A DNA stretch of 64,000 nucleotides, taken from Sphingomicrobium sp. Lineage in GTDB: Bacteria > Pseudomonadota > Alphaproteobacteria > Sphingomonadales > Sphingomonadaceae. Positions 40,221-51,773 of this stretch are shown one piece after another. Location: positions 1,635 through 65,634 of the forward strand of contig JBBJOG010000012.1 in the NCBI GenBank assembly GCA_037721775.1, written 5' to 3'. The notes under the pieces were generated by a model. It was not told the origin of the DNA. It ran no database searches and saw nothing but the letters and a program-made list of their open reading frames with translations. A program made the position numbers and the translations under genes. The first letter of the stretch is position 1; each line of letters opens with the position of its first letter.

Positions 40221-40297
40221 GCACCCATAGCTCAGCTGGATAGAGCGCTGCCCTCCGAAGGCAGAGGTCAGAGGTTCGAATCCTCTTGGGTGCGCCA
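40221..40297 (+). tRNA. tRNA-Arg(CCG)
   Basis: GCACCCA/TGGGTGC-GCCA; anticodon arm CTGCC-CTCCGAA-GGCAG; GGTTCGAATCC. Confidence 0.98.
40282..40297 (+). repeat. attL core (16 bp)
   Basis: CCTCTTGGGTGCGCCA, identical to 50670-50685. Confidence 0.92.
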
Positions 40298-40307
40298 CCT
40301 TCCGCAT

Positions 40308-41387
40308 TTATCCCTCCTCTTTCAGTGGTTTACGCGCGCCGATGGCTAACCGTTCGCGCAGGTTAGCCATTAGTTTCTCGCCAGCGGCGTCCGAAAGCAG
40401 CTCTTGATCGGCCGCTGCCGTGTATCGGGAAACCTCGGAATCCGTGGCGTGTCCCGTCCAGGCTTTGATGAATTGGTTGCTACAGCCTGCCTCAGCTAAT
40501 CTGCGTGCAGCAGCCTTCCTCAACCCGTGCGCCGAGCATTGGGGAAGCCCTGCTTCGTCGCACCATTGGCGCACCTTGTTGCCGAAGCCCTTGCGGCTGA
40601 ATGGCTTGCCGTGATCGCTCAACAGGAAAACCAATCCACCGGACGGTGCAGCCATGATCGACTCGGCAAGCGCCGGAAGGATTGGAAGCGATACGCTCGT
40701 GCCCGTCTTTTCCTGGGTGACGTGTAGCCGCTTGTTCCGAACATTCGGCGGTCCCATCAGCCTTGCATCGCCGCCCCGCTGCCCCGTCCACAGCATCAGG
40801 TCGAGCGCCAGCCGCGCCTTCGTTCCGACCGGGTGCCGCGCTTCATACCGGGCGATTTCTTCCTCGCTCCAGGTGTGGAAGCCGGTGCCCGCCACCTTGT
40901 AAGGCTTGGTCGCGATGACCGGGTTGCCGGTCGCCATCCCTTGCCGGATCGCAAACTGCATTAGCGCCCGCAGACGCTTGCGGAGCATATTCGCCGCCGT
41001 CCGGTGCGGGAGCATTTCGGACATCATATCCTCGACGTGGCGCGGCTCTAGATCGCGGATTAGTGCGTCTCCATATTTGACCCGCCACCGTTCAATGACG
41101 CCTCGATAAACGACTCGCGTGCGATCGCTAGGATCGAGGAAGTCGGGAGACCGATAGTAGCGCGTTATCAGGTCATGGAAGGTGCCAGGCCGGACGCGCT
41201 CGGCACCGGCCATGATCGGCTCCGCCGCAATGCCTTCGATGCACGCCCGATATTCGGCGCGGAAACCCTCGGTTCCGGGCGCGTGCTTGAATAGATATTG
41301 CGCGAAGCCCTTGCGACGGAAGCGATAGCGCGGCTTGCCGTGGCGGTCGCGGAACTCACTAACCCATCTCGGCAACCAGCGATTCAT
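40308..41387 (-). CDS. int: Tyrosine recombinase / phage integrase
   Basis: WTGQRGGD (Arg), AHGLRK (HxxR), GH...RY (Tyr); adjacent to attL. Confidence 0.96.
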   Translation of the reverse strand: MNRWLPRWVSEFRDRHGKPRYRFRRKGFAQYLFKHAPGTEGFRAEYRACIEGIAAEPIMAGAERVRPGTFHDLITRYYRSPDFLDPSDRTRVVYRGVIERWRVKYGDALIRDLEPRHVEDMMSEMLPHRTAANMLRKRLRALMQFAIRQGMATGNPVIATKPYKVAGTGFHTWSEEEIARYEARHPVGTKARLALDLMLWTGQRGGDARLMGPPNVRNKRLHVTQEKTGTSVSLPILPALAESIMAAPSGGLVFLLSDHGKPFSRKGFGNKVRQWCDEAGLPQCSAHGLRKAAARRLAEAGCSNQFIKAWTGHATDSEVSRYTAAADQELLSDAAGEKLMANLRERLAIGARKPLKEEG

Positions 41388-41569
41388 TGCACCGCCCTCA
41401 GCCGGTCGAAGCTATTGCTCGCAACAGCGGGACCGTCTCCGAACTGCATCTCTATGTCACCAGTCGCCGGATTGACCCGACAGCCGCGCGGCTCAAGCCC
41501 AGCCTTCCGCGCACCGCGAAGGGCACGGGTCAAGTCAGCTTGCTTAAAAGTGGCGCGGCGTGCGACCAT
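41384..41569 (-). CDS. Putative excisionase-like small protein
   Basis: 61 aa, ATFKQADLTRALRGARKAG, stop overlaps integrase start. Confidence 0.7.
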   Translation of the reverse strand: MVARRATFKQADLTRALRGARKAGLEPRGCRVNPATGDIEMQFGDGPAVASNSFDRLRAVQ

Positions 41570-42828
41570 TATGCCGCCGCCCTCCCAAGGAAGCGATAGA
41601 CCGCCTCAATGCGACCGTCTTTGTTGTGGACAGGGACGGTAAGCTCATGCGGAGGCAGCGAGGCGCGCTCCTCGCTTGGGGTGCCTCGCGGGTTCCAGCC
41701 TTCCACCTGCCGGATTTCGTCGGGATCGAGCACGCCGGTTTCGACCGCAATCTTGTGCGACTGCCAGCGGGTTTCCGGATCGGAGCGCAGCAGGCTCGAC
41801 ATGTCGAACTCAAGCTCGAAACGAGAGTCGGGGCCAAGCAATGCGCGGCTCAGCTCAGCCTCAAGCCGACGAACGCGCGGAGTGAGCGTGAATTGGCCAA
41901 ACCAGCGCGCTGCTTCCCGGCTGTTCGTGAAAGTGCCGTGCGACAGGTCGCCGACCAAGGGCGGGGGCACGCCATAAATGCGGGCGATTTCCTCCACAGC
42001 GAAGCGACGGCTCGCCAGCAATTCAGCGTCCTCTGGGCTTATTTGACTGGCCTGCCATTCAAGCCCGCCGTCTAAAATAAGGGTGCTGCCCGCCTTCGCG
42101 GCGCCCTGGTGGCGCTCAGCGAATGTCTCACGGAGAGTATGCCGCTGTTCCGCTGTCATTGCGCCAGGGTGTTTGATGATGCCGCTTGGCTGCGCACCCC
42201 GGTCGAGGAACGTGCGGGCAAATGTCTGTTGCGAGGTCGCGGTGCGGAGAACGTCGCGGGCGCGGCTGAGCCTGGAGCGCCCGATAAAGCCGTCGTCGCT
42301 GCGGTCTTTCAAGTGAACAGCGTCGTCAGCTAGCAGTCGCCGTTTTACCGTAGACGTTCCCGGTTGAGTCGGCTCGTAAACGTCGAAGGCCACGCGCCCG
42401 CTGGGCAGGAGCTGCATCTGGACCCATGCCCAGGGCAGGAAACGAAGCTCGGCAACGCTGCCGTCGCCGTTGCGGATAATCTCGATCAGCGCATTGCCCG
42501 CCAGCTCGACGCTGGCGATGGCCGATTCCAGCAGCGCACCCCAAACCTGATTAGGGTTAGGACCGTAGCGCACTAGGTCGAGCAGCCAATGCCCGCCAGC
42601 CTCGCGGCGGGTGAGGCCGTCCCGCTCATATACCAGCAGCGGGAAGCTCGCCATGTTGCTTGAGATGACGTTGATGCACGCCAGTGCGACCGCGAGGTTT
42701 TCCGCTTGCGCCGCGCTGAACTCGCACTCCCGCTCCATATAGGCGACGGTGACGGGATGCGCGGTCGCTGCCCATGCGTCCCGCTGTTCGGGCGCGAAGT
42801 AGGACCGAACGGTCTGGAGAAAGTTCAT
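41569..42828 (-). CDS. HK97-family portal protein
   Basis: AVALACINVISSNMASFPL, SRRFAVEEIARIYGVPP, DEIRQVEG. Confidence 0.95.
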   Translation of the reverse strand: MNFLQTVRSYFAPEQRDAWAATAHPVTVAYMERECEFSAAQAENLAVALACINVISSNMASFPLLVYERDGLTRREAGGHWLLDLVRYGPNPNQVWGALLESAIASVELAGNALIEIIRNGDGSVAELRFLPWAWVQMQLLPSGRVAFDVYEPTQPGTSTVKRRLLADDAVHLKDRSDDGFIGRSRLSRARDVLRTATSQQTFARTFLDRGAQPSGIIKHPGAMTAEQRHTLRETFAERHQGAAKAGSTLILDGGLEWQASQISPEDAELLASRRFAVEEIARIYGVPPPLVGDLSHGTFTNSREAARWFGQFTLTPRVRRLEAELSRALLGPDSRFELEFDMSSLLRSDPETRWQSHKIAVETGVLDPDEIRQVEGWNPRGTPSEERASLPPHELTVPVHNKDGRIEAVYRFLGRAAA

Positions 42829-43340
42829 CGGTAAGCCTCCAGTCTGAGGCGCATGAGATCCAGCGCGAAAGCAGCGTTGCGCGCCTCCACGGTCGTCGCG
42901 GTATAAGCCGGGAAAGATTGAACGACGCTGATTTCATGCAAGTGGATATTGCGAAGCGTTCGTGTTGTGCCCCGCCATTCATCGCCGCCCTTGGGGGTCG
43001 AGAAGCCGAAGCTCATTCCGCCAGCATCGCCGCGCTCGACCAGTGCGAGCACATCGCGGGCCGCGCTTGTCTCGGGCAGGTCGATTTCAAAGGCGAGGCC
43101 CCGGCTATCCTCGGACAGTCGAAGCGAGCCGCTTTTCGTTCGGCCCAGCAGCTTTCCTGCATCGTGATCGACAAGAGCGAGGATATCGCGCCCACCGCCA
43201 AGCGAAGCCGTGACGGCTCCAGGAGCAATGATTTCCCGGTGCCCATTGATACGCGCCTCGCTGCCATAAACGAGGGCATATCCGGAGAGGGTGCGGCCTT
43301 CCGACCGCACCTCCCCCTGGATGGATGCCCGCCGCTCCAT
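42825..43340 (-). CDS. HK97-family prohead protease
   Basis: LSGYALVY, HDAGKLLGRT, GMSFGF, LHEISVVQSFPAY. Confidence 0.95.
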   Translation of the reverse strand: MERRASIQGEVRSEGRTLSGYALVYGSEARINGHREIIAPGAVTASLGGGRDILALVDHDAGKLLGRTKSGSLRLSEDSRGLAFEIDLPETSAARDVLALVERGDAGGMSFGFSTPKGGDEWRGTTRTLRNIHLHEISVVQSFPAYTATTVEARNAAFALDLMRLRLEAYR

Positions 43341-43341
43341 C

Positions 43342-44655
43342 TTATGCCGCCCTCAAGCCAGTGATGCGGGCGATCGCCGCAGGCCGTGCAATGGCAACAT
43401 CGGCGCGAAGCCATCCGACGAAGCCGACCTGCCCAACCTCCGCGAAACGCTCCTGGAGCACCGTAATCTGGAGCTGAGTGCGAATGCCGACCAGAACCTG
43501 CGAAAAGTCGCCAATGAAAGCGGAACTGGCGTTCGTGCTCGTTCCTTGGGTTTCAGCGATCGGCAGCCCCGTCGTCGTCAACACCTTTAATTTCCGAAAG
43601 AGGGGCGGAGGCTCGATCGGCTGGCCGGTCGTATCGACTAGGCCCGCCAGCGTGCGTGCTGTCCGGGGCGCATAAACAAGCGCGGTGATGTCGCTTTCGT
43701 TCACGTTTTCGAGTGCCAAGATAGCATCGAGGAACGGCCCGTAATTGGCCAGCACCGCACCGTTACCGCCCGTGCTAATCGTCTGGATGCCGGGAGTGTT
43801 GGCAATGCCCAAGGGAGTGTTGGACGTTCCGGTGCCGTAAAAAATTGCGGTGTCGAGGCCACGAGCAAAGGCTTGCCCCATCACGGCGCGGAGCTGGCCA
43901 TCCAGATTAGGCGCGTCTTCCAGCAATTCGCGGGAAACGTTGAAGCGAACCGCAAGCGTCTTTGCATCCAGCGACAAGTCGCCGAAGACAGGCTCGCTCT
44001 CGGCGATATTCGCGTTTTCCGCTCTCCACTGCGGCACGGGATCAGAGATGACTTTCGCCATCCGCAGAGTCTTTGCCGTCATCGGAATCGTTCGAGCACC
44101 GGCCTGAAAAGCAACATTGCGCGTCCGGGCCGCGTCAATAACCTCGGTTGCGAGCGGCGTCGGAAGCAGCGCCCCACCTGAAGCCACAGCCCCTTCAGAA
44201 AGAGCACGCTTTTCGGTGTCAGTGCGGGGGCCGTTTACAAGCGCCCGCAACACGCCCTGCAAGCCGATTTCAGACGCCGCAGATTCCTCTGCCGGAAGAT
44301 ATTCCGAAATCCTTTGCTCAATGCCTAGGACCGGCACGCGATCGCCTTCAGGGGTGCGCCATGCTTCCGGGTCGGTTGCGGAAGTCGATTTTACATTGGC
44401 AAAAACGCGATATTCGACGCCGTTGCTGCCGGGGTTGCCATTCAAGGGCTTGCCCTTGGCGTCCGCATCTTCGCGCGCGATGCGCTCCAGGCGGGTTTCG
44501 TCGCCCAGGATGCGGTCGAGCTCGACAATCTTGCCGTCATAGTCGGTGCGCTGTTCGTCGCTAAGCAGGCCATCGGTGCCAGCGGGTGCGTCAATGATCG
44601 CCTTGGTAGCGGAGCGAAGCTCTGCCTTCCGCTGGCGCAAGGTGTGCAGGTTCAT
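43342..44655 (-). CDS. HK97-fold major capsid protein with delta domain
   Basis: N-terminal coiled coil, GGALLPTPLATEVI, VSRELLEDA, YGTGTSNTPLGI, FIGDFS. Confidence 0.95.
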   Translation of the reverse strand: MNLHTLRQRKAELRSATKAIIDAPAGTDGLLSDEQRTDYDGKIVELDRILGDETRLERIAREDADAKGKPLNGNPGSNGVEYRVFANVKSTSATDPEAWRTPEGDRVPVLGIEQRISEYLPAEESAASEIGLQGVLRALVNGPRTDTEKRALSEGAVASGGALLPTPLATEVIDAARTRNVAFQAGARTIPMTAKTLRMAKVISDPVPQWRAENANIAESEPVFGDLSLDAKTLAVRFNVSRELLEDAPNLDGQLRAVMGQAFARGLDTAIFYGTGTSNTPLGIANTPGIQTISTGGNGAVLANYGPFLDAILALENVNESDITALVYAPRTARTLAGLVDTTGQPIEPPPLFRKLKVLTTTGLPIAETQGTSTNASSAFIGDFSQVLVGIRTQLQITVLQERFAEVGQVGFVGWLRADVAIARPAAIARITGLRAA

Positions 44656-44867
44656 TTTACAAGTCCTTCAATCTGGCCGGGCAAATTCCGGAATTCGCGG
44701 AATTTGGACCCGGCACGGTGAAAGCCGACAGTCTCTCGACGTTGGCATGGTGAGCGGGTGAGGCCCGCAAGCTCGAATAGCTCGACCTGGTGCAAAGCGT
44801 CCCCTGCACCTTTCGGCAACGGCAGACGCGCCAGCCGACCCCTGGTCGAAGGGAGATTTTTGTTCAT
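44652..44867 (-). CDS. Hypothetical protein (71 aa)
   Basis: Start and stop both overlap neighbouring genes (coupling); no known motif. Confidence 0.45.
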   Translation of the reverse strand: MNKNLPSTRGRLARLPLPKGAGDALHQVELFELAGLTRSPCQRRETVGFHRAGSKFREFRNLPGQIEGLVK

Positions 44868-45337
44868 CAGTCGTCGGTTTCCGGGTCGCCAATTATCGAT
44901 CGCTCTTCCTCGGTGTAGTGCGCGACCAAATCGCGTTCCTTGCCGATGCGGAAGGTCGTGACGGCGCGAATGTCGGTGCCGCTAAAAAGCACGTCGTCCC
45001 AAGTCTCAGGTGCTGGAACGTCAGACGCGAGATGGGCGTGACCGCCCCGGAAATAGCTCTCGACATAGCTAACGGCGCGCGCCTCAGGGTGGAGTTTGGC
45101 AACCTCCCCGATCGCACAGGCGATCGTGCCCGCGCGCTCAACGGTGTAACCGTCGTCGAGCAAGCGTTTGAAGAGGAATAGCGTCAGCATGTCGTCCGGG
45201 TCGAAAAGGCGAGCGCGGCCGGGAACTGTCCTCGGTGCACAGCCATAATGGCCAGCGGCAACATACTCGTTGAAGCGATCCCGGTTGAGGCCCGCTATTC
45301 GGCAGGCGACGGGGGTGGTAACTTTCGGGACGGCCAC
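44867..45337 (-). CDS. Putative HTH (MerR/AlpA-like) DNA-binding protein
   Basis: ACRIAGLNRDRFNEYV...GRARLFDPDDM resembles winged HTH; SD GAGGAG before GTG. Confidence 0.65.
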   Translation of the reverse strand: MAVPKVTTPVACRIAGLNRDRFNEYVAAGHYGCAPRTVPGRARLFDPDDMLTLFLFKRLLDDGYTVERAGTIACAIGEVAKLHPEARAVSYVESYFRGGHAHLASDVPAPETWDDVLFSGTDIRAVTTFRIGKERDLVAHYTEEERSIIGDPETDD

Positions 45338-45417
45338 AGCTTAATCTCCTCTTGGGTCGATCCGATAGGTAGACTAGCTCTCGGCTCAAAGCAAGAGGTG
45401 TCCAACTCGGTTCGTCG

Positions 45418-45453
45418 CAAAAAGCTGCCCCCGGCCCGCTAATGCCGGGGCAG
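45418..45453 (-). terminator. Intrinsic terminator inside satellite
   Basis: Minus strand CTGCCCCGGC...GCCGGGGGCAG-CTTTTT. Confidence 0.7.
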
Positions 45454-45461
45454 TCACTGAG

Positions 45462-45749
45462 TTAGACGCCGTCGTCGTATCCTTCCGGGTCGTCGTCCAC
45501 GCCCCGGTCAGGGTCAGCAATCGGGCACCCAGGCCCCTCGCCGCCGTGCTGCATAAAGTCGTCCTCCGAAGCGTTTCCGTCCGCTTCGTCGCCGTTCAGC
45601 TCAACGTCGGTGTCGCCGTCCATTGCGTCGGCAAGGTCGATCGCAACGGCGATGAAGCCGCTAAGTTGTTTCCGGTCGAAGCGCGACAGGATCGCCATGA
45701 CGGCTGGCGCTGGCGGATATGCTGAGGGGAACTGTGCGACGTTACCCAT
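45462..45749 (-). CDS. Highly acidic small phage-type protein
   Basis: 21 D/E in last 58 residues. Confidence 0.7.
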   Translation of the reverse strand: MGNVAQFPSAYPPAPAVMAILSRFDRKQLSGFIAVAIDLADAMDGDTDVELNGDEADGNASEDDFMQHGGEGPGCPIADPDRGVDDDPEGYDDGV

Positions 45750-45933
45750 GACGCGCCTCCCGCTCGTGACGGAGAGAAATGACGCCGAAGTCGAACATTG
45801 CTTCCCAGGCGCGCAAATGCGCCTGGTTGCGAGGATCGAACGCCGGAACGTCAGCTCGCAGCGGACGCGGGCGGGGTGTGAACTTAACGAGATTGTCGGG
45901 GGCGGATTCCGCCCTATGGGTATTTGTAGCCAT
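45742..45933 (-). CDS. Hypothetical protein (63 aa)
   Basis: SD AGGAG before ATG; overlaps next gene. Confidence 0.7.
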   Translation of the reverse strand: MATNTHRAESAPDNLVKFTPRPRPLRADVPAFDPRNQAHLRAWEAMFDFGVISLRHEREARHG

Positions 45934-46003
45934 TGGTCGCTCCTAAATAGCGGTTGGTGGTTAGGCTCGGGTCGGGCGTTTCAGCACCCGGCTCGGGCCG
46001 TCT

Positions 46004-46050
46004 CGTTACCTAACGGACTTGCGTTAGTGACGTCAAGCCGTTAATAACGG
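46004..46050. promoter_or_regulatory. Divergent promoter/operator region
   Basis: Three CGTTA-N1-2-T(A/G)ACG palindromes; TTGCGT-N17-TAATAA (+) and TTGACG (-). Confidence 0.65.
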
Positions 46051-46053
46051 CGG

Positions 46054-46371
46054 ATGGCTTTATCCAATTCCGAACGACAGGCTCGCTACCGCCAGCGGCT
46101 CAAAGATGCCGCTCAGGGCGTAACGCCGGAAATGGTCGTCGCGGCGGCCCGAATCATTTTCGAAGTGGCAGCAGAAGAAAATCCATCGATTGGCAACTGG
46201 CAGGATTTTCTGATTAAATCGCGACAGAAAAGATACCGCACCAATTGGGAAGAGATGGTGCCGGACGATCCTAGGCCAAACGCTTACTGGTTTCTTGAAG
46301 GCGACGATCGCAGGCTAGTCGAAAGTGTTGCAGCCGTTATTAACGCTGCCACGGTTCCGCCGGCTGGCTAA
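46054..46371 (+). CDS. Putative satellite regulator (only plus-strand gene of the element)
   Basis: Basic N-terminal helix LSNSERQARYRQRLK; probably leaderless. Confidence 0.75.
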   Translation: MALSNSERQARYRQRLKDAAQGVTPEMVVAAARIIFEVAAEENPSIGNWQDFLIKSRQKRYRTNWEEMVPDDPRPNAYWFLEGDDRRLVESVAAVINAATVPPAG

Positions 46372-47981
46372 ACCCACATCGGCCCGGTGCCCTTGTAAAC
46401 CTCGGGACCAGTGTCCTTCGCCGCCAATCCGCAGGCCATCACTAGAGCCTGTAAGCCGTCAATGCGATCAATGGAGCGCGCCTTCGACAGCTTCCTCGCT
46501 CCGGCTGCATCAGTGTCGAACACGGCATTGCCAGCGTTCCATCGCAGGACCGGGTGCATCCCATGCCGCAGCTCGCCAGCAAGAAGGGCGCGCTCGAAAG
46601 CATCGACCGCAGGCCCCATGCTAACATAGCCCTGGCCCCACTCGACTAGCGGGAGCTGGACGCCCTCCCCGTCCAGGATAACTTGCAGGTCTTTGAATCC
46701 CCATCGATCATAAGCGACTCCCCGCAGGTCGAAGTCGGCAATAATCTTGGCAATGCGCCGCGAGATAAAGCGTTTGTCGATTGCCGCTCCCGGCGTTGTT
46801 TCCAGGTGCCCTTGCTTCGCCCAAGTCCGGTAAGGAACGCGGTCGGTTTCCTCTTTGACCGCGAGGTTAGTCTTCGGCGTCCAGAAGTAGGGCAGGACCG
46901 CGCCGCCATCCTCGGGAAAGTAGAGCACTAGAGCCGCTAGATCGCGCACTGAGCCAAGGTCGAGTGCCCCGTAGCATGGCCGACCGCGAAGGGCTTTAGC
47001 GTCCACCGGGTCGCCGCACGCGGCCCACTCAGCCGGATTGATGGCCTTAGGTTCCGCGTCCACCCGCATATTGCAATGCAGGTTCAAAAACGCCGGTTCG
47101 AATGTCGGGAGCCGCTTCGCCCGGTCCGCTTCGTCGGCAATTTGCTCAGCGGAAACGAACGTGCCCAACGCCGGGTTGGCGAGCACCCAATTCGCCGGAT
47201 CGAACGGGTCTGCATCCTCGGGAACGGCATAAACAACGCCGTGGAAACTGGCGTCCTCGACCTCCCCGCTGTTCACTCGACCGGCATAATCGACCAGCTC
47301 GCTCATCAGGTTCTCGGGGTGCGGCGATTGCGTGCCGATAACCAGCATCAGCGGCTCTTTGCGCTTCCCCATCGAGGTCCGCAGCACGTCGAACAGCTCC
47401 CGCTTTTTCCACTGTGCCAATTCGTCGGCGCAGATGAAGCTCGACGCGGTTCCATGAACGCTCCCGCCGTCACTGGCGAGCGCCCGATAGGTCGAGCCGG
47501 TTTCCAGGTCCTCGATCCGTTTGTGGAAGCGTTGCACGTTGAGTCGCGCGGCGAGCCACGGCACCGCGAATATCACGGCTTCCATCTCGGCAAAGATCAG
47601 CGCGGCCTGTTCCTTGGTCGCGCCCGCCGAATAGCATTCGCCGCGCTGTTCAGCCTCAGGCCCCGCAAGGTGACAAATGCAAAGCAGCGCGGCGAGCACA
47701 GTTTTTCCCTGGCCTCTTGCAACTGACATGAGGCCGGTGCGGACCCGTCGCTGCCCATTCTCGCCCTCGGCATAGATCGCCTCGATCCACTCCCGCTGAA
47801 ACGGGAGGAGCTTCACGTTCTCGCCAGCGCCAAAGCCCTTGGTTATCGGCATGGATTCGATGAACAGGATAACCCGCTCGGCACGGGTGAGGTTTGCAGC
47901 TTCCCAAGCGTGCGGCCCGCAATGCTCGGCTTCCTCAGCCGCCTTCCGCATCCGGCTCGCGCCTGGTCCCCTAGCGCCCAT
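46368..47981 (-). CDS. terL: Terminase large subunit
   Basis: Walker A ARGQGKT, Walker B ICADEL, nuclease GALDLG and RIDG. Confidence 0.95.
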   Translation of the reverse strand: MGARGPGASRMRKAAEEAEHCGPHAWEAANLTRAERVILFIESMPITKGFGAGENVKLLPFQREWIEAIYAEGENGQRRVRTGLMSVARGQGKTVLAALLCICHLAGPEAEQRGECYSAGATKEQAALIFAEMEAVIFAVPWLAARLNVQRFHKRIEDLETGSTYRALASDGGSVHGTASSFICADELAQWKKRELFDVLRTSMGKRKEPLMLVIGTQSPHPENLMSELVDYAGRVNSGEVEDASFHGVVYAVPEDADPFDPANWVLANPALGTFVSAEQIADEADRAKRLPTFEPAFLNLHCNMRVDAEPKAINPAEWAACGDPVDAKALRGRPCYGALDLGSVRDLAALVLYFPEDGGAVLPYFWTPKTNLAVKEETDRVPYRTWAKQGHLETTPGAAIDKRFISRRIAKIIADFDLRGVAYDRWGFKDLQVILDGEGVQLPLVEWGQGYVSMGPAVDAFERALLAGELRHGMHPVLRWNAGNAVFDTDAAGARKLSKARSIDRIDGLQALVMACGLAAKDTGPEVYKGTGPMWV

Positions 47982-48399
47982 GTCGGTTGCCCTTTGAAAC
48001 TAACTCTATATTTTGGTTCGGGCGCGGTCTTACCCCACCAGCCCTGAGCGATTTTGCTCGATCAATAGTGGGAAAACTGTTCCCACTATTCCACGGGTGC
48101 GCCGGGTCGAGCGGCGTGCCATCGGGGTTGCATCCCTTCCTTGGCTTCGTGCTCTTGATCGCCCCGGCTTCCCCCCCGCGTGCCGTCTTCGCGCTGTGAC
48201 AGCCCGGACAATATGAGGCGAGGCCATCATGCCCAGGGAAGGCAGGCCCGCCCTCGCTCATAGCGTGCCGGTGATCCACGGTGTTCGCCATGCGATAGGG
48301 CTTGCCCATCGCTGTGCATCCTTCGCAGAATGGGAAGCGGGCAAGGTGCGCGGCCCTGAGCTTACGCCATGCGCCGGTGTTGTAAGGCCAGTCAGCCAT
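47971..48399 (-). CDS. HNH endonuclease (terminase-associated type)
   Basis: PFCEGC...TVDHR...YCPGCHSAKT; GCNPDGTPLDPAHPW tail. Confidence 0.9.
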   Translation of the reverse strand: MADWPYNTGAWRKLRAAHLARFPFCEGCTAMGKPYRMANTVDHRHAMSEGGPAFPGHDGLASYCPGCHSAKTARGGEAGAIKSTKPRKGCNPDGTPLDPAHPWNSGNSFPTIDRAKSLRAGGVRPRPNQNIELVSKGNRHGR

Positions 48400-48604
48400 G
48401 CTCAGGCCCCATCATTGCGATTAGGTGCCAATCCTTGAGCACGCTCGCTAGGATCGTGGCACGCGATCGGGAGACGCGGCTGCCGCGCAGCACGCCCTCG
48501 ATCTCCCTTGCCGTCATCGGGCGGGATACCGCGTCGAGCACCAGGATGGCCGTCTGTTTCTGTTCCGGCGTCATGTCCTCGATCAGCTCGTGCAGGTCAG
48601 CCAT
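48392..48604 (-). CDS. Hypothetical protein (70 aa)
   Basis: Overlaps flanking ORFs. Confidence 0.65.
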   Translation of the reverse strand: MADLHELIEDMTPEQKQTAILVLDAVSRPMTAREIEGVLRGSRVSRSRATILASVLKDWHLIAMMGPEHG

Positions 48605-48758
48605 GCGCCAGCCCCCTCAGCTCGCGGGAGTATAGATGTGCCGCTGGCGGCACATTTGGAGGTGTCTGGTGGATGTAGCGTTCCGGGTTGCTCCAATCGG
48701 GCGATAGCCGTCCGATCTCGCGGGCAAGGTCGAGCATCTTGGTATCCGGGGCCATCAT
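48597..48758 (-). CDS. Hypothetical protein (53 aa)
   Basis: Not in ORF track; MMAPDTKMLDLAREIGRLSPDWSNPERY...; ATG overlaps helicase stop. Confidence 0.55.
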   Translation of the reverse strand: MMAPDTKMLDLAREIGRLSPDWSNPERYIHQTPPNVPPAAHLYSRELRGLAHG

Positions 48759-50137
48759 GCCTGCCCCCAATCAATGTCATCTTCATCGGGGGCAGGCGGC
48801 CCAAGGGCCTGCCCCTTATTATACGTAGTATATAGGGGGGTTGGCGCACGCACCTTGGCGCAAGTGTTTTCAATGACTTGGCTAGGGGCATGGCGCGGGT
48901 CAGCGCAGGGGGTTGGCGCAGGGGTTAGCGCGCACTTTTCAGCCGCTTTGATGCCGACCGCAAAGTGCCGGTTTGGCAGTTTCCAAAGCTCCTGATTGAG
49001 CTGGATTCTGCCCAGGTGCAGCAGTCGCTCGAACGCGGCTTCGTATGCCTTGCGCGAGAATTGCCTGCCCTCGGTCATCTTCGCAAAGACGGTCGGGGCA
49101 TAGTTGACGCCGGGGTTATGAGAGACGGCGCGGTTGCTTTCCGTCGCCGCCGCCAAGCATCGCATGAAGGCTTCGTTTTCAGCCGACGCTTGAATGGTCA
49201 GCGCAATGTCCCTCGCTGCATCAGCGGGCAAGTCGGACTCGCGAACATAGGCCATCCGGTGCCAGCGGAACGCGAGCGTTTCACCGTTGCGGGCATAGTT
49301 GGATTTCTGGCGCGACAGCACTCTAGCGTCGGGATCGAGCACCGACCCGTCACTGTCCTTTGGCGTCTCCATGAACAGCCGGGAGCGAACCTGATTCTCC
49401 CAGGCCGTCGAGCCGGAGAAGCTATCGCCAGCCTTGTTCGGATGGCCGATGAACAGCACCGACCCCTTTACGGTCATGGCGAGCTTGTTAAGCAGGTTCA
49501 CGAATTGAGCGACCTCGTGCCGGATATTCTCGTTTCCCGCAAACAGGTGCGCCACGTTGTCGATGCCAATGAAACGGGCACCGATCGCTTGCGCCATGCC
49601 ATTGAGCGCCTGCCAGCGCGGCGTCGTCTGCATTGACGGGCTTGTGTTGCCGAACTCGTCTTTCACTTGGGCATGGCCGAACGTCGCCAGCTCAGTGTCG
49701 GTATGCCCCGCGAGCGAAACAAGGTGCAGCTTGCCGTCAAGCGCGCTCAGCGGCACGCCCAGCGCATCGCAGATGGCCTTCTGACGTTGATGCAGGGCAA
49801 TCTCGTCGTCTTCGCAGGTGATGTAGAGCGCGACCGATTGCCGCGTCTCCACGCCCATGAACGGCAAGCCCAGCGCGATGGCGGTGCATAGCTGTTGCGT
49901 TAGTAACGACTTGCCCGATGCGCCCGGGCCGGTGAGGTAGGTTGCTTGCCGCGCCGGTATCCAGTCGGTGAGCGCCCATTCCCGCTCAGGCGTCGGTTGC
50001 CCCTGCCATGTTGCCGGATTGAGCAACGGCATAGTTTTGCGCCATTGATCCACCATTGAACTGTTGCCGAAAGCAATGCTTTCCGCGGCCTGTTCGAACG
50101 GTGCCCATGCGTCATCATTGTTAGTTGGCTGGAGCAT
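48755..50137 (-). CDS. RepA-like (AAA_25/SF4-type) helicase
   Basis: YLTGPGASGKSLL, YITCEDD, IGIDN, IGHPNK, FSGSTAWEN..R; start probably ATG 50137. Confidence 0.88.
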   Translation of the reverse strand: MLQPTNNDDAWAPFEQAAESIAFGNSSMVDQWRKTMPLLNPATWQGQPTPEREWALTDWIPARQATYLTGPGASGKSLLTQQLCTAIALGLPFMGVETRQSVALYITCEDDEIALHQRQKAICDALGVPLSALDGKLHLVSLAGHTDTELATFGHAQVKDEFGNTSPSMQTTPRWQALNGMAQAIGARFIGIDNVAHLFAGNENIRHEVAQFVNLLNKLAMTVKGSVLFIGHPNKAGDSFSGSTAWENQVRSRLFMETPKDSDGSVLDPDARVLSRQKSNYARNGETLAFRWHRMAYVRESDLPADAARDIALTIQASAENEAFMRCLAAATESNRAVSHNPGVNYAPTVFAKMTEGRQFSRKAYEAAFERLLHLGRIQLNQELWKLPNRHFAVGIKAAEKCALTPAPTPCADPRHAPSQVIENTCAKVRAPTPLYTTYNKGQALGPPAPDEDDIDWGQA

Positions 50138-50453
50138 CGAAGCCTCCCATCCGGTCGAGCGTCGAGGCCGTGCAAAGCAGCCGGAGACAGACGTTCGCAG
50201 CATCCTCCAGGTTGCCCAGGTCCTGAAACCTAAAGACATAGGCCGCCGACACATCGAGAATGACTTGATGCAGGCTAAGCGCCTGGTCGGTATGCCCGCT
50301 CGGGTTCGACAGTGCGGTTGTCGCGAGGTCTCGCGAAGTCATCAGCCGCTTGCGGAGCTTCCTGATATTCTCAGGCTCATTGATGGGCACCAGGGCCGAC
50401 AGCGCCGCGTCGTATCGGTCGGGAACGGTGATCGCGGGGAAGGGCATATTCAT
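50121..50453 (-). CDS. Hypothetical protein (110 aa)
   Basis: Overlaps helicase start; SD GGGAGGG upstream. Confidence 0.65.
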   Translation of the reverse strand: MNMPFPAITVPDRYDAALSALVPINEPENIRKLRKRLMTSRDLATTALSNPSGHTDQALSLHQVILDVSAAYVFRFQDLGNLEDAANVCLRLLCTASTLDRMGGFDAPAN

Positions 50454-50669
50454 TGCGCTGCCCTCCCGCTTGCGGTATCATTCGCTTGCCTGCCCGCTGC
50501 TATGGAAAGGCCCGCCCTCGCATCGGTTGCCGCCGACGCGGGGGCTTCTTTTTGCCCCGGCGGAGCGCCTGAGCGGTTAGCCATTGGGAAAAGGTCGCGA
50601 GAGCAATTCGTGATCGACAGCGTGCCGGTTAGCCTTTGCTTGTCACTGTTTTCGTTAGACTGTTGCACC

Positions 50670-50685
50670 CCTCTTGGGTGCGCCA
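50670..50685 (+). repeat. attR core (16 bp)
   Basis: CCTCTTGGGTGCGCCA duplicate of the tRNA-Arg 3' end. Confidence 0.92.
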
Positions 50686-50714: not shown

Positions 50715-51773
50715 CTAGTCCTTGCCGTCGCCTGGCATCGGCGTGTCGGTGTGCAGCGTCTCGATCACGTACAGGCGCTTGACCAGCACGAGGGTGACGA
50801 CCGCCAGCGGCGCGGCGAGGATCACGCCCAAGGTCCCGAACAATGTGCCGAAACCGATCAGCGCGAACAACAGCACAACTCCGGGAAGGTCGACCGCATA
50901 TTGCTGAATCATCGGGGTCAGCAAAGTGCCTTCGATCTGCTGGACGCCGAGGTAAAGCAGGATAACCCACAAGGTCACCTCCGGCCCCATCGCAAGCGCC
51001 AGCAGCACCGCCGGCACCGCGGCAATGAACGGCCCGGCGAACGGGATGAACTCCAGCAGGCCGGCAAGCAGGCCGAGCGCAAGCGCCGACGGCATTCCGA
51101 GCAGCCACAAGCCAATTCCGATCGTCAAACCCACCACCACCATCGCGATCGCCTGGCCCATGAGCCACAGGCGCAGCGCGCGCTCCGATTCCAGCATAGC
51201 CTCGGCGGCGACCTTGCGCCTCTCTTGCGGAACCAGCTTGATCACGCCCGTGCGATAGAATTTGGGCTGGGTGGCAAGATAGATTCCGGCGAAGATCACC
51301 ACCACCAGATCGGCGATCCCGCTGCCGACCGACAGCAGGGTCCGGCCGAAGCCCGACAGGCTGCCGCCGCCCGGGGTGCTGATGCTTGCCGCCAATTGCT
51401 CGAGCTGGTTGCCGAGGCCGAAGTTGCCGATCCGCTTCTCGAACGCTTCCCACGCCGTCGGCAGTTTGTCCCAGAGCGACTGCATTTCCTGGCCGATATG
51501 CGATCCGAACACGGCGATCAGCGACACTAATCCGCCAAGCACCAGCAGGATCGCCAGCGCCGTCGACGCCCAACCGGGCAGCCGCGTGACCCGGAAAATG
51601 CCGTCGGCGACGGCGCGGAAAATGCTAGCGATGACAACCGCGCCGAACAGCATCAGCAGCAAAATGCGCAGTTTCCAGACGAGAAAGAACAGCGCCGCGA
51701 GACCGAGCGCGATCAGGACCCGGTGGACGAACACCTTGTCGCTAATTGCTTTGGGAGCCTGCCGATCCGCCAC
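50715..51773 (-). CDS. AI-2E family (PerM-like) transporter
   Basis: GLLEFIPFAGP, QQIEGTLLTP, GVILAAPL. Confidence 0.9.
   Translation of the reverse strand: MADRQAPKAISDKVFVHRVLIALGLAALFFLVWKLRILLLMLFGAVVIASIFRAVADGIFRVTRLPGWASTALAILLVLGGLVSLIAVFGSHIGQEMQSLWDKLPTAWEAFEKRIGNFGLGNQLEQLAASISTPGGGSLSGFGRTLLSVGSGIADLVVVIFAGIYLATQPKFYRTGVIKLVPQERRKVAAEAMLESERALRLWLMGQAIAMVVVGLTIGIGLWLLGMPSALALGLLAGLLEFIPFAGPFIAAVPAVLLALAMGPEVTLWVILLYLGVQQIEGTLLTPMIQQYAVDLPGVVLLFALIGFGTLFGTLGVILAAPLAVVTLVLVKRLYVIETLHTDTPMPGDGKD

Follow-up and report, generated by a model that had tools for sequence, protein, structure and literature searches.

How can an integrated element that encodes its own phage head complete and fill it when neither head-tail adaptor and connector genes nor a gene for the small terminase subunit (TerS) can be recognised in it? 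This question is raised by an island in a 64,000-nucleotide stretch of Sphingomicrobium sp. DNA (assembly GCA_037721775.1, contig JBBJOG010000012.1, positions 1,635 to 65,634 of the forward strand; this whole stretch is called the window below). The island comprises 10,404 bp (window 40282-50685) between exact 16-bp direct repeats CCTCTTGGGTGCGCCA and carries genes for a major capsid protein (MCP), a prohead protease, an HK97-type portal, an HNH endonuclease and a large terminase subunit (TerL). An earlier note, made from the letters of the window, compared this arrangement with phage-inducible chromosomal islands of the capsid-forming kind (cf-PICIs), and proposed that the element either borrows neck proteins and TerS from a helper, uses a diverged small open reading frame (ORF) instead, or spreads as a neck-less capsid. 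The resemblance holds for the island's own head and packaging genes; the published definitions of cf-PICIs include an adaptor, a connector and TerS as well.

We favour, at a joint probability of roughly 0.6, the reading that the island in the window is intact and belongs to a large family of integrative elements of ~10 kb that form capsids and are tail-less, that neck genes in this family form an optional cassette of one or two genes in the portal-xis slot and are lacking from the window's clade, and that the C-terminal tail of the island portal is a sub-lineage feature unrelated to the neck. About the same probability is given to its functional side, namely that heads are made and filled by the island itself, with the neck, tail and lysis proteins supplied by an incoming helper.

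Neck genes in the portal-xis slot

The portal gene is followed directly by the xis-like gene, here called xis61, with an overlap of exactly 1 nt; together with the 4-nt overlap between xis61 and the integrase gene this leaves no room for a neck gene at the junction. Searches of Pfam (E up to 0.1-1), PHROGs and NCBIfam matched none of the island's small ORFs to a family of adaptors, connectors or head-completion proteins, and hidden Markov models (HMMs) of the adaptor and head-completion proteins of the island's own family gave noise only in its six frames (best E 0.5 and 1.2). The same two HMMs found no match across the 2.15-Mb genome, and PF05135 was likewise not found there. As a positive control, the two neck profiles recognised gp6 and gp7 of phage HK544 at hhalign probabilities of 94% and 96.5%. 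Forty members of the small-ORF families, taken from relatives and scanned singly, had no family match. The lack of an adaptor or connector gene that the earlier note had reported was thus borne out by family searches and six-frame HMM searches with working controls.

Portal searches recovered three relatives from reference genomes, 530 metagenome stretches and a further 251 from IMG/VR; ~165 loci were examined by tblastn and HMM annotation, and more were added through homologues of the 156-aa ORF described below. In many of these relatives the portal gene is followed by a gene for an 89-aa adaptor resembling gp6 (PF05135, scoring up to 42 bits where the cut-off is 21.2), and in a subset next by one for a 106-aa head-completion protein (PF05521, 77.8 bits), before xis and integrase. 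The neck genes of the relatives sit exactly in the portal-xis slot, the junction that the earlier note had singled out. Among 129 distinct portals, 54 are accompanied by neither gene, 27 by the adaptor gene only and 27 by both; the other 21 were left unclassified (19 with too little downstream sequence, and two with an adaptor gene but cut by the contig end).

The portal tree places the window in a group of four (Shimodaira-Hasegawa-like approximate likelihood ratio test, SH-aLRT, 100) inside a 30-member clade (SH-aLRT 99), of which 22 members have no neck genes, one has an adaptor gene and seven carry no assignment. Well-supported branches require at least nine gains or losses of neck genes, and the best tree calls for 17. 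The window's four nearest relatives (66-82% portal identity) are all neck-less: in L012 and L008 the portal gene runs straight into an excisionase-type ORF, in L013 it is followed by a homologue of xis61, where this short contig ends, and in L092 the integrase gene lies ~280 nt downstream of the portal gene with no adaptor match. Relatives with neck genes at the portal-xis junction, which had been named as the sign of a simple recent deletion, do exist, but they are distant from the window (~50% portal identity) and not found among the close ones. Because no remnant was found in six frames and all four nearest relatives are neck-less too, a recent deletion is rejected on the sequence comparison.

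The slot is also used in other ways. A conserved ORF of ~210 aa (MTLQNG...YLWTDT...) without a Pfam match fills it in five loci (L017, L067, L139, L142 and L157) and may be an accessory or defence gene. Two loci are rearranged: L104 reads portal, adaptor, HNH, TerL with no integrase gene between, and L149 has the adaptor gene upstream of the capsid gene.

The small terminase subunit and the N-terminus of TerL

In cf-PICIs the island's own TerS makes packaging island-specific. In the window the HNH gene abuts the TerL gene with an overlap of 11 nt, and no ORF of the island matches a TerS family in Pfam, PHROGs or NCBIfam. Terminase_4 was found in none of 50 family records and not in the host genome, and an HMM of TerS from sphingomonad prophages gave no match in the island, in the genome or in any locus. 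With hhalign also negative and no small ORF scoring confidently as TerS (see below), the claim that a separate TerS gene is missing was upheld.

All HNH-to-TerL gaps were inspected in the relatives, and a separate, P27-like TerS is present in L080 only. This protein of 146 aa starts with MGRRGPKSKP and shares 28% identity with a Terminase_4 protein (E 1e-7). Other wide gaps in this position, considered as hidden TerS genes, turned out to be HNH genes fused to a P-loop domain: proteins of ~290 aa with a C-terminal P-loop (GPPGSGKT) are encoded directly upstream of TerL in L024 (3996-4886), L040 (1049-1915) and L143 (4241-5098).

The nearest phage TerLs are those of HK97-like coliphages, at 39% identity. 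Of the 74 distinct TerLs in the family, 73, including that of the window, begin with [MVL]GxRGP and are longer by 32-54 residues (median 35), which precede the core and contain a conserved (H)PW motif. TerL starts at its core without such an extension in L080 (MGRADRVIAFIE) and in phage HK544 (MTRGERVIAFIE). The separate TerS and the extension are thus anti-correlated one to one and share their first residues, which suggests a deletion that removed a TerS gene from between HNH and TerL and joined its first codons in frame to TerL; we regard this origin as possible but doubtful. It is with similar reserve that we propose a joint role, in which the ~35-aa TerL arm (MGxRGP...HPWE) together with HNH might replace TerS or dock a helper TerS; as half of the family also does without a neck of its own, the completion of heads by helper proteins would then be a stable mode of life that evolved repeatedly.

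Small ORFs as candidates for TerS or a connector

Besides a conserved 57-aa ORF that is not in the list of the earlier note, the island contains small ORFs of 61, 63, 70, 71, 95, 105, 110 and 156 aa, named by their lengths below. The earlier note had suggested that one of those with 70, 71, 95, 110 or 156 aa might be a diverged TerS or connector. By hhalign, the families of o57, o95, o110 and o156 scored below 2% against HK544 TerS, gp6, gp7, gp10, gp11 and Terminase_4 TerS; that of o70 reached 13% against gp6 over 18 columns only and stayed below 1% against the others. For o156, o110, o95 and o71 the suggestion did not hold, and o70 was left without any structural match.

The AlphaFold (AF2) model of o156, built on 67 sequences, has a predicted local distance difference test (pLDDT) score of 93.3. 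Its only full-length match in Foldseek is CvkR (7xn2, E 6.5e-6, TM-score 0.60/0.62); the other matches are N-terminal domains of MerR proteins, with no terminase among the 50 matches listed. A search of PDB sequences with the o156 profile gave nothing below E 1. Homologues 57-85% identical occur across several alphaproteobacterial orders, some of them in early regions of elements encoding Terminase_4 themselves (L004 and L005). The possibility that o156 is a Nu1-like TerS with a MerR-type helix-turn-helix (HTH) was ruled out by the CvkR-like fold and by these homologues alongside Terminase_4; as judged from the model, o156 is a transcription regulator and not TerS. Other members of the family have different proteins of 180-255 aa at this position. 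Five of them were tested: two match MerR_1 (E 1.1e-5 and 0.0028), and the remaining three have no Pfam match and N-termini that look HTH-like to us.

The strongest form of the diverged-ORF explanation is that o70, or o57 together with o70, is TerS and that packaging is conventional. TerS proteins are hard to detect by sequence, and these two ORFs sit directly upstream of HNH-TerL and overlap its start. The o70 model (AF2 pLDDT 86; helix-helix-strand-helix-helix-strand) can be read as a winged-helix-like DNA-binding fold, but Foldseek found no significant match for it either in PDB (best E 1.4) or in BFVD (best E 0.78), and o70 is present in part of the family only. The o57 ORF had appeal as TerS because no other small ORF occurs across the packaging module; its family is widespread, with 628 clusters at 50% identity in a library of 1.8 billion proteins and the motif RLxPDWxxPERYFE, and its domain directly follows the TerL gene in two unrelated elements (L173 and L176). 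However, o57 also occurs together with an HNH-TerS-TerL set in three prophage-sized viral contigs of ~40 kb (L195, L201 and L206), where its place is 1-2.5 kb upstream of HNH, at the close of the early region. In L201 the homologues of the ORF between HNH and TerL are named 'phage terminase small subunit' by their sources; in L195 and L206 we read the corresponding ORF as a probable TerS, for which BLAST gave nothing significant. Since these contigs carry o57 beside such a TerS ORF, o57 itself was ruled out as TerS. Both ORFs are moreover far shorter than the TerS proteins of 139-161 aa seen here, and their families score below 1% in hhalign against HK544, Terminase_4 and sphingomonad TerS. 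We therefore consider a TerS hidden in o70 or o57 unlikely. Longer proteins with an o57 domain mostly look like over-extended ORFs, none of them with a Pfam domain, and their reading as informative fusions was rejected. In the window, o57 has an 8-aa replacement of the conserved FExRxE stretch.

The o110 ORF co-occurs with an adaptor gene in L020, scores below 1% in hhalign against gp6, gp7 and TerS, and is read from its place in front of the replication gene (rep) as a partner in the replication module, not an adaptor. The acidic family of o95 and o63 (cluster C0) lies between the TerL and capsid genes in 20 loci, with LDxxDGDPD and GPGCPIxDP motifs and a Cys-motif. It appears as two overlapping ORFs of 63 and 95 aa in the window; the relatives mostly have a single ORF with a median of ~119 aa, some of them much longer. 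The o71 ORF belongs to no conserved ORF cluster, and relatives have a variable intergenic stretch of 160-200 nt in its place; it is probably a non-coding spacer. An alignment of the spacer between o156 and MCP gave no clear signal of conserved sites. Some relatives have a small reverse-strand ORF at the position of o105 with a weak, sub-threshold RHH_1 match (E 0.066), and o105 is a candidate repressor of a switch.

The 61-aa protein next to the portal is probably a recombination directionality factor and not a neck protein. Its family (~60 aa, ~25 loci besides the window, motif RRAxFKQADxxRALRAAxxAG, no family match) always lies directly upstream of the integrase gene, downstream of the neck genes in relatives that have them, and alternates with HTH_17 excisionases in the same slot. 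Because of this position and this exchange the label 'xis-like' appears reasonable, and the family is a candidate for a new type of recombination directionality factor.

Source of the missing head and packaging functions

In the reading that we favour, the island after induction would build its own HK97-type procapsid from MCP, protease and portal and would package its own DNA with HNH and the extended TerL, while an incoming helper phage would supply the adaptor, the head-closure (stopper) protein, the tail and lysis. In tailed phages, adaptor and stopper proteins generally close the head and connect it to the tail, and we infer that borrowing from a helper is the best reading for the neck. 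The host genome is 98% complete, and no second capsid, portal or TerL gene (four Pfam TerL families) and no tape-measure, gp6-like or Terminase_4 gene was found in it; the island MCP is its only Phage_capsid match. These searches, which served to look for a resident helper or a gene transfer agent, found neither, and a gp6-like gene is present in none of four host genomes of neck-less relatives. With no detectable helper prophage in the genome, a helper has to arrive from outside.

Several points weigh against this picture. We know of no helper phage for this host, and the activity of the island (induction, packaging and transfer) is read from its genes. The hypothetical link between the TerL extension and TerS draws on a 73-to-1 correlation and a short motif; in hhalign the extension and TerS match at a probability of ~1%, and their likeness is confined to the first 6-7 residues. 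A TerS or neck protein of a new kind might lie beyond the reach of profile and fold similarity in o70, o57, the acidic protein or xis61, and the structure models cover two ORFs, o156 and o70. The class of portals with neither neck gene could likewise hide neck genes of families outside the reach of the two HMMs, and the portal tree comes from a quick search with SH-aLRT as its support.

A helper might also provide TerS, so that helper TerS would recognise the island DNA and the island would contribute only a TerL and an HNH that suit its own portal. Of 74 family members, 73 have no separate TerS, the island TerL is of the type that normally works with a P27/HK97-type TerS, and sphingomonad prophages with HNH-TerS-TerL exist. 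However, cf-PICI definitions include an own TerS, no satellite known to us pairs its own TerL with a helper TerS, and a helper is lacking so far. This reading would also leave the conserved TerL extension without an explanation, unless it is the docking site for the helper TerS. We rank this division of labour as improbable, somewhat below a TerS hidden in o70 or o57.

It is far less probable that the element is a decaying remnant which can no longer spread. By our own count from the descriptions it has at most 8 of the 11 core cfPICI parts, there is no helper in the genome, and its o57 carries the 8-aa replacement of the FExRxE stretch. The core ORFs, however, are all intact and mutually overlapping, and in the neck-less group portal, MCP and protease are under purifying selection (dN/dS 0.17-0.24; portal 0.17-0.23). 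Of 110 scored lineages, 54 are likewise neck-less, at many different integration sites, and 73 of 74 are TerS-less. Among 120 other species genomes sampled from the host's taxonomic family, 4 encode a portal with 49-55% identity to that of the island, and the one same-genus genome searched has none; since the island is absent from that genome, it is a variable, mobile trait.

The C-terminal tail of the portal

The unusual C-terminal extension of the portal had been proposed as a replacement for an adaptor or as the remnant of a deletion. The extension is real, as it is not present in five relatives compared. It is found in one relative only, L013 (the closest, at 82% identity), where 28 of 30 residues are the same and the xis61 gene is next. 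It has no similarity to the family adaptor, to the excisionase or to anything else in the loci, so a frame-shifted remnant of an adaptor or excisionase gene was ruled out; no remnant was found in six frames either. Solved portal structures have their C-terminus in the crown, within the capsid, and adaptors bind to the clip outside. For this reason the tail is unlikely to replace an adaptor, and it cannot explain the neck-less clade because the other neck-less relatives do not have it.

Least probable of all is that neck-less heads are the final form, with the portal binding a helper tail directly, perhaps with help from this tail, or with DNA-filled tail-less capsids as the vehicle: the release of cf-PICI capsids that lack tails and join them later has been described and the tail is conserved at 28 of 30 residues in one close relative, but tail fit in the cf-PICI work depended on the island's adaptor and connector genes, other neck-less relatives have no such tail, and it is placed at the capsid-interior end of the portal fold.

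Comparison with known satellites and phages

The studied cf-PICIs encode their own capsid, protease, portal, HNH, TerL, TerS, adaptor and connector, and it is their own adaptor and connector that decide which phage tail fits (10.1101/2025.02.11.637232; PMC10085698). Like EcCIEDL933 and KpCIDSM30104, which belong to this group of integrative elements of 10-18 kb, the island has an integrase, a regulator and a replication module, encodes an HK97-type capsid, protease, portal, HNH and TerL of its own and is without genes for a tail or lysis; it presumably hijacks helper tails. Of the cf-PICI features, size and integrase, replication and regulation, capsid-protease-portal, HNH with TerL, and the lack of lysis and tail genes were all found. 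Unlike the cf-PICIs, it lacks three core features (an adaptor, a connector and a separate TerS gene), and its head genes are arranged MCP, protease, portal with the integrase gene at the end of the capsid operon. The cfPICI model of SatelliteFinder requires 9 of 11 components (PMC10085698), of which the island has at most eight by our own count from the description, not from program output. The hosts belong to the Alphaproteobacteria, and the main text of the SatelliteFinder paper never uses that name (PMC10085698).

The HK97-like phages (the HK97, HK544 and HK022 group) share with the island the TerL family, HNH, a PF04860 portal, an S78 protease and an HK97-fold MCP, and the adaptor and head-completion proteins of the relatives match HK544 gp6 and gp7. 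These phages have TerS, TerL, portal, protease, MCP, gp6, gp7, tail and lysis genes in ~40 kb, whereas the island is without TerS, neck, tail and lysis. Its head-gene order is the reverse of the portal, protease, MCP order of HK544, the neck genes of the family follow the portal gene and not the capsid gene, and its TerL has ~35 aa more at the N-terminus than that of HK97-like phages. The order MCP, protease, portal on one strand was seen in the window (41569-44655) and in all family loci. Residues 1 to ~159 of the MCP can be read as an HK97-style scaffolding (delta) region.

Cos-type Staphylococcus aureus pathogenicity islands (SaPIs, e.g. SaPIbov5) and P4 also have no TerS of their own and obtain their packaging specificity from the helper. 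They are also without TerL, portal and capsid genes and use the helper head and terminase, which the island supplies itself. The 'twilight-zone' mini HK97-fold genomes from metagenomes (5-11.6 kb; PMC13669383) share with the island a tail-less genome of ~10 kb, a capsid and a proposed satellite lifestyle. In the part of that account drawn on here, portal-less and non-canonical packaging is discussed, in contrast to the integrative island family with its portal, TerL and HNH.

The family thus represents a widespread natural case in which neck genes and TerS are dispensable or replaced. A comparison of members with no neck, with an adaptor only and with adaptor plus head-completion protein might tell what fits a head to a tail, and a comparison of L080, with its separate TerS, with the rest might tell how much of a terminase specific packaging needs. 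The TerS-less terminase is, if it holds, the most novel element: with a terminase that works without a free small subunit, these would be the smallest known self-encapsidating satellites, with three head and two packaging genes. Finders that require 9 of 11 cfPICI parts probably miss the whole alphaproteobacterial family; ~4% of the sampled genomes of the host's taxonomic family carry a relative.

Layout of the island and its relatives

The features of the island are listed in Table 1. Every island gene except o105 is on the minus strand. The order of transcription is o110, rep (AAA_25), o57, o70, HNH, TerL (with o105 next on the plus strand), o63 and o95, o156, o71, MCP, the S78 protease, portal, xis61 and integrase. 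No ORF between the att repeats matched a tail or lysis family in Pfam, PHROGs or NCBIfam. The next gene past the far att repeat is that of a host AI-2E transporter (50715-51773, minus strand). The start of rep is probably near 50137, because in relatives the rep start overlaps the stop of the upstream ORF.

Table 1. Features of the island and its ends in window coordinates
Feature	Position	Strand	Evidence and remarks
tRNA-Arg(CCG)	40221-40297	+	ARAGORN; last 16 nt (40282-40297) are the att core, integrase end
Tyrosine integrase, 359 aa	40308-41387	-	Pfam Phage_integrase 7.3e-20; phrog_1 1.4e-41
xis61, 61 aa	41384-41569	-	No family match; position next to integrase
HK97-type portal, 419 aa	41569-42828	-	Pfam Phage_portal 1.4e-89
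Portal C-terminal tail, last ~30 codons (...SLPPHELTVPVHNKDGRIEAVYRFLGRAAA)	41572-41661	-	Lineage-specific; after conserved EGWNPRG motif
Prohead serine protease, 171 aa	42825-43340	-	Pfam Peptidase_S78 5.8e-39
HK97-fold MCP, 437 aa	43342-44655	-	Pfam Phage_capsid 8.6e-39 (residues 160-432); phrog_10 4.7e-57
o71, 71 aa, between o156 and MCP genes	44652-44867	-	G+C at third codon positions (GC3) 0.60, lowest in the minus-strand operon
o156, putative MerR-type (CvkR-like) regulator, 156 aa	44867-45337	-	Pfam MerR_1 7e-5
o95 and o63, acidic early-operon ORFs	45462-45933	-	DGDPD and GPGCPIxDP motifs; no family matches
o105, 105 aa	46054-46371	+	Sole plus-strand gene; convergent with TerL, divergent from the capsid operon
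HK97-type TerL, 537 aa	46368-47981	-	Pfam TerL_nuclease 4e-40, TerL_ATPase 1.7e-21; phrog_9 5.6e-134
TerL N-terminal extension, residues 1-35 (MGARGPGASRMRKAAEEAEHCGPHAWEAANLTRAE)	47877-47981	-	Ahead of RVIxFIE core
HNH endonuclease, 142 aa	47971-48399	-	Pfam HNH 3.7e-5; phrog_2323 1.5e-21; of the kind that accompanies HK97-type terminases
o70, 70 aa	48392-48604	-	Overlaps HNH by 8 nt; small helical, winged-helix-like in the model
o57, 57 aa	48597-48770	-	Conserved; RLxPDWxxPERY motif; family HMM E 2.6e-21
AAA_25 (RepA/helicase-like) replication protein	48755-50254	-	Pfam AAA_25 6.3e-29; phrog_906 6.4e-32
o110, helical, 110 aa	50121-50453	-	Overlaps rep; conserved directly upstream of rep
att core repeat, far island end	50670-50685		Exact 16-bp copy of 40282-40297

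The loci of the family follow the order rep, o57, (o70), HNH, TerL, switch, HTH regulator, MCP, protease, portal, [adaptor, head-completion], xis and integrase, into which the window fits; portal, protease, MCP, TerL, HNH, rep and o57 are homologous throughout. They are integrated at different tRNA genes, and most of the IMG/VR records are 9.6-11 kb long. The family is large, apparently unnamed, and mostly from Alphaproteobacteria so far.

A second AAA_25 (RepA-like) gene, 32% identical to the island rep, is located in the same genome at contig C8:3832-4881 and may mark another small mobile element. Among the environmental records, L155 (IMG/VR, 10,148 bp) has direct terminal repeats, and L055, a 21.5-kb metagenome contig, contains two tandem units with a period of ~10 kb; together they suggest that circular or concatemeric DNA of such elements was present in an environmental sample.

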